Source: Escherichia coli (GTDB lineage: Bacteria > Pseudomonadota > Gammaproteobacteria > Enterobacterales > Enterobacteriaceae). Taken from it: DNA of 64,000 nucleotides. Shown here one piece after another: positions 44,874 through 46,671 of this stretch; position 1 is the first letter of the stretch, and each line of letters begins with the position of its first letter. The stretch lies in assembly GCF_003790525.1 (NCBI RefSeq), contig NZ_CP033635.1; one strand, given 5' to 3'. The notes below the pieces were generated by a model. That model ran no database searches, was not told where the DNA came from, and worked only from the letters and a program-made list of their open reading frames with translations. Position numbers and translations under genes: made by a program.

Positions 44874-45327
44874 TCGAGCAGCATAATAACGTTACGGGAT
44901 TAATACCGCAAATCTCAGAGAAAGCCCGACAAACCCAACTAAGCGCACCTCTTATCTGGTCCGCCAAAGAGCTTAATGTCCGGTGCAGATTTTCGATGTA
45001 AAAAACCGCCTGGCTGCGGGTTTAAGTTGTGTGGCGTAGGAACCACTCTTACCATGATATGCATACTTTTACGATCGTAAAGTGTTTGTTCATACCCTGC
45101 ATGCTGCATGATTCACCCCACATACAATCTCTGGATTGTTGCGACGCTTGGCAAGATGTAATTAAAGATTATGCATTCTTCTATGCACGTATTTTTCTTC
45201 AAAAGCAATGTCTTTATTAAGGTTATATAAATAACTCATAACCCCAAATAATTAAATATATTTAGCACTTCTAATAAAAAAGATTGATCTTAATTTTTTG
45301 AGTGAAAGATAGCCATCTATTTATTAG

Positions 45328-46522
45328 GGAAGGTGCGAACAAGTTCCTGATATGAGATCATCATATTCATCCGGAGCGCATCCCAAAGGGACATCATGAG
45401 CCATCAACTCACCTTCGCCGATAGTGAATTCAGCACTAAGCGCCGTCAGACCCGAAAAGAGATTTTCCTCTCCCGCATGGAGCAGATTCTGCCATGGCAG
45501 AATATGACCGCTGTCATCGAGCCGTTTTATCCCAAGGCGGGCAATGGCCGACGGCCCTATCCGCTGGAGACCATGCTGCGTATTCACTGCATGCAGCATT
45601 GGTACAACCTGAGCGACGGTGCCATGGAAGATGCCCTGTACGAAATCGCCTCCATGCGCCTGTTTGCCCGATTATCCCTGGATAGCGCCCTGCCGGATCG
45701 CACCACTATCATGAATTTCCGCCACCTGCTCGAGCAGCATCAACTGGCCCGTCAATTGTTCAAGACCATCAATCGCTGGCTGGCCGAAGCAGGCGTCATG
45801 ATGACCCAAGGCACTTTGGTGGATGCCACCATCATTGAGGCACCCAGCTCTACCAAGAACAAAGAGCAGCAACGCGATCCGGAGATGCATCAGACCAAGA
45901 AAGGCAATCAGTGGCACTTTGGCATGAAGGCCCACATTGGTGTCGATGCCAAGAGTGGCCTGACCCACAGCCTGGTCACCACCGCGGCCAACGAGCATGA
46001 CCTCAATCAGCTGGGTAATCTGCTTCATGGAGAGGAGCAATTTGTCTCAGCCGATGCCGGCTACCAAGGAGCGCCACAGCGCGAGGAGCTGGCCGAGGTG
46101 GATGTGGACTGGCTGATCGCCGAGCGTCCCGGCAAGGTAAAAACCTTGAAGCAGAATCCGCGCAAGAACAAAACGGCCATCAACATCGAATACATGAAAG
46201 CCAGCATCCGTGCCAGGGTGGAGCACCCGTTTCGCATCATCAAGCGGCAGTTCGGCTTCGTGAAAGCCAGATACAAGGGGCTGCTGAAAAACGATAACCA
46301 ACTGGCGATGTTATTCACCCTGGCCAACCTGTTTCGGGTGGACCAAATGATACGTCAGTGGGAGAGATCTCAGTAAAAACCGGAAATAACGCCAGAAATG
46401 GTGGAAAAAATAGCCTAAATAGGCTGATTCGATGTGTTTGCGGGAAAAAAATCGGCCCAGATCCGCGAAATTTTAATCAGCGAGTCAGCTTGGGAAGAAA
46501 TGACCTGCTTATTCGCACCTTC
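45328..46522 (+). mobile_element. IS5-family insertion sequence (1195 bp) with 16-bp terminal inverted repeats and 4-bp TTAG target-site duplication
   Basis: Left IR GGAAGGTGCGAACAAG (45328-45343); right IR CTTATTCGCACCTTCC (46507-46522); TTAG at 45324-45327 and 46523-46526. Confidence 0.95.
45396..46376 (+). CDS. insH: IS5 transposase InsH
   Basis: 326-aa [37 protein letters not shown]..., DDE transposase, near-identical to E. coli InsH. Confidence 0.95.
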
Positions 46523-46671
46523 CTTAGCTTGCATGACTTCTTATTTTGTGATAGTGGTCACATATAAAGAATCGGACTCCTTAATTTTCCTTGTATACAT
46601 TATACACAGAAATTAAATTTTCATCCTGATAGCATTTTGTCGTCCAATTAACTCCCACCAGAGGATAAAAA

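Follow-up and report, generated by a model that had tools for sequence, protein, structure and literature searches.

Does an insertion sequence (IS) lodged in the late regulatory region of a lambdoid Escherichia coli prophage separate the Q-dependent late promoter from the genes that it serves, and does it alter the expression of the porin gene beside it? A preliminary description of this locus, drawn from the sequence, had placed an IS5-family element between Q and the tRNA and lysis genes and raised both effects. We addressed these questions in a 64,000-nucleotide stretch of E. coli contig NZ_CP033635.1 (hereafter the window, to which all coordinates refer unless another record is named). 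We consider it very likely that a recent insertion of ISKpn26 lies upstream of the late promoter pR', leaves the late genes uninterrupted and changes porin expression little.

Results

Anatomy and identity of the inserted element

The inserted element has the hallmarks of the IS5 family, namely a length of ~1.2 kb and imperfect inverted repeats of ~16 bp starting GGAAGGTGCGAA (Table 1). The two 16-bp repeats match at 15 of 16 positions, and the terminal-repeat motif has two copies only in the 64-kb window, both at the ends of the IS. As is typical of IS5-type elements, a single intact DDE transposase is encoded, scoring 367 bits against the NCBIfam model of the IS5 family transposase (cutoff 140), and TTAG on either side of the IS forms a 4-bp Py-T-A-Pu target duplication. 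All the parts named in the preliminary description (a complete IS5-family element, inverted repeats, a 326-aa transposase and TTAG repeats) were thus recovered, as was its position between Q and the tRNA and lysis genes. The span given there, 45324-46526, starts correctly and ends one base short of the end of the duplication at 46527, while the distance of 149 bp to the porin gene corresponds to the 148 nt that we count between the IS end and the porin ATG (46672).

Table 1. Features of the insertion locus (window coordinates; minus-strand promoter, terminator and Q coordinates are written in the direction of transcription)
Feature	Position	Strand	Remarks
Complete IS5-family element (ISKpn26)	45328-46523	+	1196 bp
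Target-site duplication TTAG, left copy	45324-45327		single TTAG at the Ch1 and TUM1886 empty sites
Target-site duplication TTAG, right copy	46524-46527		pairs with left copy
Terminal inverted repeat, transposase 5' end	45328-45343	+	reads GGAAGGTGCGAACAAG
Terminal inverted repeat, transposase 3' end	46508-46523	-	GGAAGGTGCGAATAAG on minus strand
IS transposase ORF, intact, single, 326 aa	45396-46376	+	ORF list; NF033581
Perfect CRP consensus (predicted site)	46547-46562	+	TGTGATAGTGGTCACA; 19 bp right of duplication, 109-124 bp upstream of porin ATG
Phage-borne OmpF-like porin, 368 aa	46672-47778	+	opposite to late operon; PHROG 410
Late antiterminator Q, 140 aa, Q21 family	48379-47957	-	Pfam PF06530, E = 1.6e-53
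Predicted late promoter pR' (-35 TTTACG, 16-nt spacer, -10 TATCAT)	45081-45054	-	promoter scan and homology
tR'-like intrinsic terminator (CCGC/GCGG stem, then T6)	45030-45004	-	aligns with VT1-Sakai pR' terminator
Two tRNA genes, anticodons CAT and TCT	44720-44873	-	ARAGORN; first genes of late transcript
Holin, first lysis gene	44032-44304	-	PHROG 1350

We compared the element with annotated relatives and found that it is 99.9% identical along its full 1196 bp to copies carrying the PGAP label "IS5-like element ISKpn26 family"; the name ISKpn26 rests on these labels of near-identical copies in E. coli genomes and plasmids. At least 5,000 plasmid records match the element, mostly from Klebsiella and Escherichia and also from Enterobacter, and annotated ISKpn26 copies in E. 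coli chromosomes match it as well. That the element is K-12 IS5 itself, carrying a few point differences, is exceedingly improbable. The two share the family, a closely similar length (1196 vs 1195 bp), identical terminal repeats and a transposase that is 98% identical, but the nucleotide identity to IS5B of MG1655, the copy inside nmpC of DLP12, is 91.1% overall, under the ~95% or more that would mark the same element. This identity is unevenly spread, being 94.7% in the coding sequence (7 of 326 residues differ from K-12 InsH2) and ~75% in each of the two non-coding ends. Judged by nucleotide identity, the element is ISKpn26, a close cousin of IS5 and not the IS5 of K-12, which accounts for the divergence of its non-coding ends from K-12 IS5 that the preliminary description had rightly noticed. 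It is a known and common mobile element in an ordinary insertion event.

Empty sites and spread of the insertion

Each flank of the IS was searched separately against 5,426 complete E. coli genomes, and these searches recovered prophages in which both flanks abut with a 4-bp overlap. The empty sites in E. coli Ch1 (NZ_CP127316) and TUM1886 (NZ_CP128970) are collinear with the window, have one TTAG and have lost no flanking bases; the alignment reads ...CATCTATTTATTAGTTTGCATGAC..., with a single TTAG and no further rearrangement. A comparison with related prophages lacking the IS, which the preliminary description had proposed, is thus provided by these two uninterrupted loci. Since the empty sites carry a single TTAG, the repeat in the window is a true target-site duplication and the insertion a simple one. 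Additionally, the exact IS-flank junction occurs in 0 of the 5,426 complete E. coli genomes and has no match among the GTDB species representatives. The insertion is recent, simple and private to this strain; the estimate of a probably recent event made earlier agrees with the perfect duplication, the intact transposase, the 99.9% identity to other copies and the absence of the insertion from the closest relatives. Directly after the right duplication, at position 46528, the window has a C where both empty sites have a T.

The site of insertion, within a lambdoid E. coli prophage, lies in a divergent intergenic region that is AT-rich (31-33% GC). IS5 prefers Py-T-A-Pu targets in AT-rich, easily melted regulatory regions (PMC5493358), and TTAG in AT-rich DNA fits this preference, so the choice of site needs no selection. 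Identity of the prophage's chromosomal flank (cmoA, cmoB, yecN) to E. coli reaches 99.0%. The best E. coli matches of the stretch that holds a 437-aa ORF (59497-60810) list a tyrosine recombinase/integrase among the features by cmoA and cmoB, and the ORF may mark the prophage end or a second element.

Position of the late promoter pR'

A sensitive DNA search was run with the 448 bp left of the IS as the query. We found that window positions 45000-45091 match (78%) a segment that immediately follows Q in 346 phage records, most of them from Stx phages. In VT1-Sakai (AP000400) the matching segment is annotated as late promoter, qut and pR' terminator, and in Ss-VASD as promoter alone. The 41-nt pR' core TTTACGATCGTAAAAGTATGCATATCATGGTAAGAGTGGTT (45081-45041, minus strand) agrees at 38 of 41 positions with the late promoter as annotated in VT1-Sakai and Ss-VASD and occurs a single time in the window, and in the alignment with Stx phages a homologous hairpin and T-run directly follow it. 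The promoter scan picked the same TTTACG-16-TATCAT site independently of homology. The placement of pR' by homology refers to promoters that are called "putative" in their own database records.

Upon closer examination of this block in the window, VT1-Sakai, DLP12 and PA-2, we observe that the sequence TAAGAGTGGTT just after the -10 is invariant, next to the promoter where a Q21 cassette would have its Q-binding element and sigma-dependent pause element, and that all four share TTTACG, the TA-TGNTAAGAGTGGTT stretch and the stem of the terminator. At 4-5 bp, the tR' hairpin is short and weak, its fold being no better than that of shuffled sequence (z = -0.59), and its stem is conserved among relatives while its loop varies. 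The locus has the arrangement of a late cassette, a predicted sigma-70 promoter followed by a terminator upstream of the late genes, with both parts homologous to VT1-Sakai. The Q protein likewise matches PF06530, the Q21 family (PMC9388147), over its full length, as expected of the Q of a Q21 late cassette, and it shares 75-78% identity with its counterparts in H-19B and VT1-Sakai (75% over 134 aa for VT1-Sakai).

In the late direction the IS sits 246 bp upstream of the pR' -35. Because pR' and tR' lie downstream of the IS by this distance, the IS does not part pR' from the late genes. The preliminary description had supposed that the IS could come between the Q-dependent late promoter and the lysis and structural genes; the pR' homolog argues against this, as it falls within 44900-45320, the very interval that had been named there as incompatible with a polar effect. 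Q-dependent late transcription should continue, and a polar effect on the lysis and structural genes is unexpected.

On the minus strand, the late order is Q, the opposite-strand porin, the IS, pR', tR', two tRNA genes, holin, endolysin and Rz, with bor after Rz on the opposite strand. The porin module splits the usual Q-pR' cassette, leaving pR'/tR' ~1.7 kb (plus the IS) from Q. The same pR'-tR' block is found in DLP12 between nmpC and essD (locus L006, 4196-4281) and in PA-2 between lc and the lysis genes (locus L005, 1040-1121). Porin-carrying lambdoid phages thus appear, from these alignments, to hold the porin module between the Q 3' end and pR', with pR' adjoining the lysis genes. The lysis operon of DLP12 is reported to possess a regulatory region of its own, under the control of a Q-type antiterminator (PMC7918800).

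Several features of the late region stand beside this layout. A tRNA(CAT) and a tRNA-Arg(TCT) gene lie directly after tR' (window 44305-44873 for the tRNA genes and the stretch up to the holin), and tRNA genes are known directly after tR' in Stx phages. The tRNA-Arg gene is followed by ~415 bp without a convincing ORF before the holin. The holin-endolysin gap is ~650 bp (43375-44031) and holds an opposite-strand ORF of 125 aa (43498-43875), which matches PHROG 1853 (unknown function) only from profile position 57 and looks N-terminally truncated.

We weighed this layout against the model of the preliminary description, in which pR' lies just after Q, the IS and the porin gene fall inside the late transcript, and a polar IS cripples the prophage. 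In lambda, phage 21 and Stx phages, pR' does lie directly after Q (PMC6266700), and by analogy with that layout and with the VT1-Sakai annotation it would be expected here at 47956-47779. We nevertheless regard this model as highly improbable. The homolog of the Stx pR'-tR' segment is at 45081-45004, away from Q, its core is single-copy with no second pR' found just downstream of Q in the window, and the promoter scan returned no minus-strand sigma-70-like promoter between Q and the porin stop. Furthermore, the similarity of Q to Stx-phage Q ends near residue 123, which fits a porin module inserted between the Q 3' end and pR', and DLP12 and PA-2 have the split layout too. The target of Q, which works in trans, is RNA polymerase paused just after pR', and once loaded with Q the enzyme reads through terminators over long distances (PMC9388147); even with pR' near Q, polarity would therefore be weak.

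The porin gene and its upstream region

The porin scores 542 bits against NCBIfam OmpF, below the cutoff of 583, and its identity to Lc, NmpC and OmpD, known phage porins, is ~60%. The whole porin-Q segment was matched in only 4 of the 5,426 complete E. coli genomes. Upstream of the gene, the CRP consensus is the sole match in the 64-kb window, vs 0.12 expected by chance, and this predicted site is as far from the ATG as the CRP site that record J02580 (PA-2) annotates upstream of lc. The IS leaves the 148 bp before the porin ATG intact, CRP consensus included, and the core promoter of the porin gene probably remains intact after the insertion.

Within these 148 bp to the right of the IS, we found no -35/-10 pair with at least 8 of 12 matches, so that an element of the porin promoter, or an activator element, might in principle be situated to the left of the insertion. 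Promoter candidates such as TTGTAT-17-TAAATT, which would put the CRP site at -71.5, are guesses. CRP-dependent promoters commonly lack a strong -35/-10 pair. For PA-2 lc, a second, distal CRP site is annotated ~425 bp upstream of the ATG. This GenBank feature (1067-1087) falls inside the pR' homolog, and may have no part in porin regulation.

Past the other end of the gene there is a strong plus-strand intrinsic terminator at 47922-47938, with a 7-bp stem of which 6 are GC pairs, followed by a T-run. Located 144 bp past the stop codon of the porin gene and 18 bp from that of Q, it probably keeps porin transcription from continuing into Q in the antisense direction.

Features of the insertion that could affect porin expression

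The IS displaces 246 bp of 31% GC upstream DNA to a position 1.2 kb away from the porin promoter, its 3' end abuts the porin promoter region, and the direction of its transposase is toward the porin. Where IS5 activates glpFK and fucAO, the IS is oriented likewise, its transposase pointing at the gene (PMC2753651, PMC11894529). Phased A-tracts are present in the last 177 bp of the IS (46347-46523), starting at 46375, 46384, 46396, 46405 and 46417, and the locus therefore shares with glpFK an IS 3' end that adjoins the promoter and carries phased A-tracts.

The TCAA that forms the IHF core in the activating region of IS5, and that has been reported as important for IS5-mediated glpFK activation, reads TCGA in the ISKpn26 copy, and the IHF consensus WATCAANNNNTTR has no match in 45000-46700. 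A CRP site ~14 bp upstream of the transposase-promoter -35 is also absent, with 45298-45319 holding one 4/5 CRP half-site only. As direct analogies, the glpFK mechanism was rejected on account of the altered IHF site, and a fucAO-type fusion promoter for want of a suitable CRP site left of the IS. For ISKpn26 itself, one study found promoter activity up by ~30% when the element lay upstream of rmpA (PMC11363291).

Discussion

The anatomy of the element, its empty sites and its identity are read directly from sequence comparisons, and the position of pR' follows from homology. In the explanation that we favour, the transposing element was ISKpn26, which belongs to the IS5 family, is carried on plasmids and occurs widely in Enterobacteriaceae; one copy recently entered a TTAG in the AT-rich divergent intergenic region between the porin promoter and pR'. 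With pR' downstream of the IS and Q acting in trans, late transcription would proceed uninterrupted, and with the 148-bp CRP-dependent porin promoter region kept, porin expression would be little altered or not altered. The late promoter adjoins the lysis genes and not Q in porin-carrying lambdoid prophages, and in such prophages an insertion located between Q and the promoter of the porin gene would not be expected to knock out the late genes. The biological stake is porin expression, possibly permeability or phage sensitivity, in one strain, and the insertion otherwise matters little.

Porin expression is most likely unchanged or slightly changed, and while an effect in either direction is possible, it is probably small if there is any. 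An insertion that is adaptive, raising porin expression in the lysogen, seems unlikely to us. It could act by displacing H-NS-bound DNA (as in bgl and flhDC), through the bent IS 3' end (as in glpFK) or by read-through from the transposase promoter (as in fucAO), and the placement and orientation of the IS, the phased A-tracts that it retains, the 31% GC of the displaced DNA and the ~30% rise at rmpA all speak for it. The changed IHF core with no IHF consensus site, and the missing CRP site at the required distance upstream of the IS 5' end, stand against it; additionally, the insertion is found in one genome only, with no recurrence that would suggest selection, and IS5-type elements favour AT-rich Py-T-A-Pu sites anyway. 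We accordingly think it doubtful that ISKpn26 rewires the expression of this rare OmpF-like phage porin in the lysogen, by relieved silencing or a bent 3' end. Were it to do so, outer-membrane permeability or phage receptor display would be altered, and the locus would be a natural case of IS5-type promoter modulation on a prophage accessory gene.

The opposite outcome, in which the IS lowers porin expression by parting the promoter from upstream activators such as a distal CRP, OmpR or UP-like site, we judge quite unlikely. Porin gene promoters silenced by IS insertions are well known from Klebsiella, which counts in its favour, as do the distal CRP site annotated for PA-2 lc and the absence of any visible strong core promoter from the 148 bp that remain. 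However, the insertion spared the proximal consensus CRP site along with all that lies downstream of it, and the distal PA-2 site, lying within the pR' homolog, is maybe unrelated to the porin. A porin promoter region that keeps working much as before the insertion is the reading that we retain.

Comparison with known systems

The known cases of IS5 activation (glpFK, fucAO, bgl, flhDC) resemble the present locus in the Py-T-A-Pu target, the AT-rich divergent regulatory region, the 3' end beside a CRP-controlled promoter and the co-oriented transposase (PMC2753651, PMC11894529, PMC5493358), and they differ from it in three respects: here the IHF core is altered, the IS 5' end has no CRP site upstream, and recurrence is lacking. 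With ISKpn26 (IS5 family, IS5 group) the element shares the 1196-bp length, the 16-bp repeats, the 4-bp Py-T-A-Pu duplication and the 326-aa transposase; relative to other ISKpn26 copies, location alone differs, the junction being absent from the complete E. coli genomes searched.

Among phages, H-19B, 933W and VT1-Sakai are similar in Q (75-78%), in the pR' core (38/41) and in a homologous tR' followed by tRNA genes, but in these Stx-phage cassettes Q and pR' overlap, whereas here they are parted by a ~1.7-kb porin module and the IS, and stx genes are lacking. PA-2 (lc) and DLP12 (nmpC) are closer in layout, with an opposite-strand porin between Q and pR', a pR'-tR' block adjoining the lysis genes and a CRP site ~110-130 bp upstream of the porin ATG; relative to Lc, NmpC and OmpD, the porin here is ~60% identical and scores best as OmpF-like. 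Finally, IS5B of K-12 in DLP12 parallels the present insertion in family, in organisation and in having entered the porin module that separates Q from the lysis genes, but there the porin coding sequence is interrupted at its 3' end and inactivated, whereas the IS described here lies 148 nt upstream of an intact gene.
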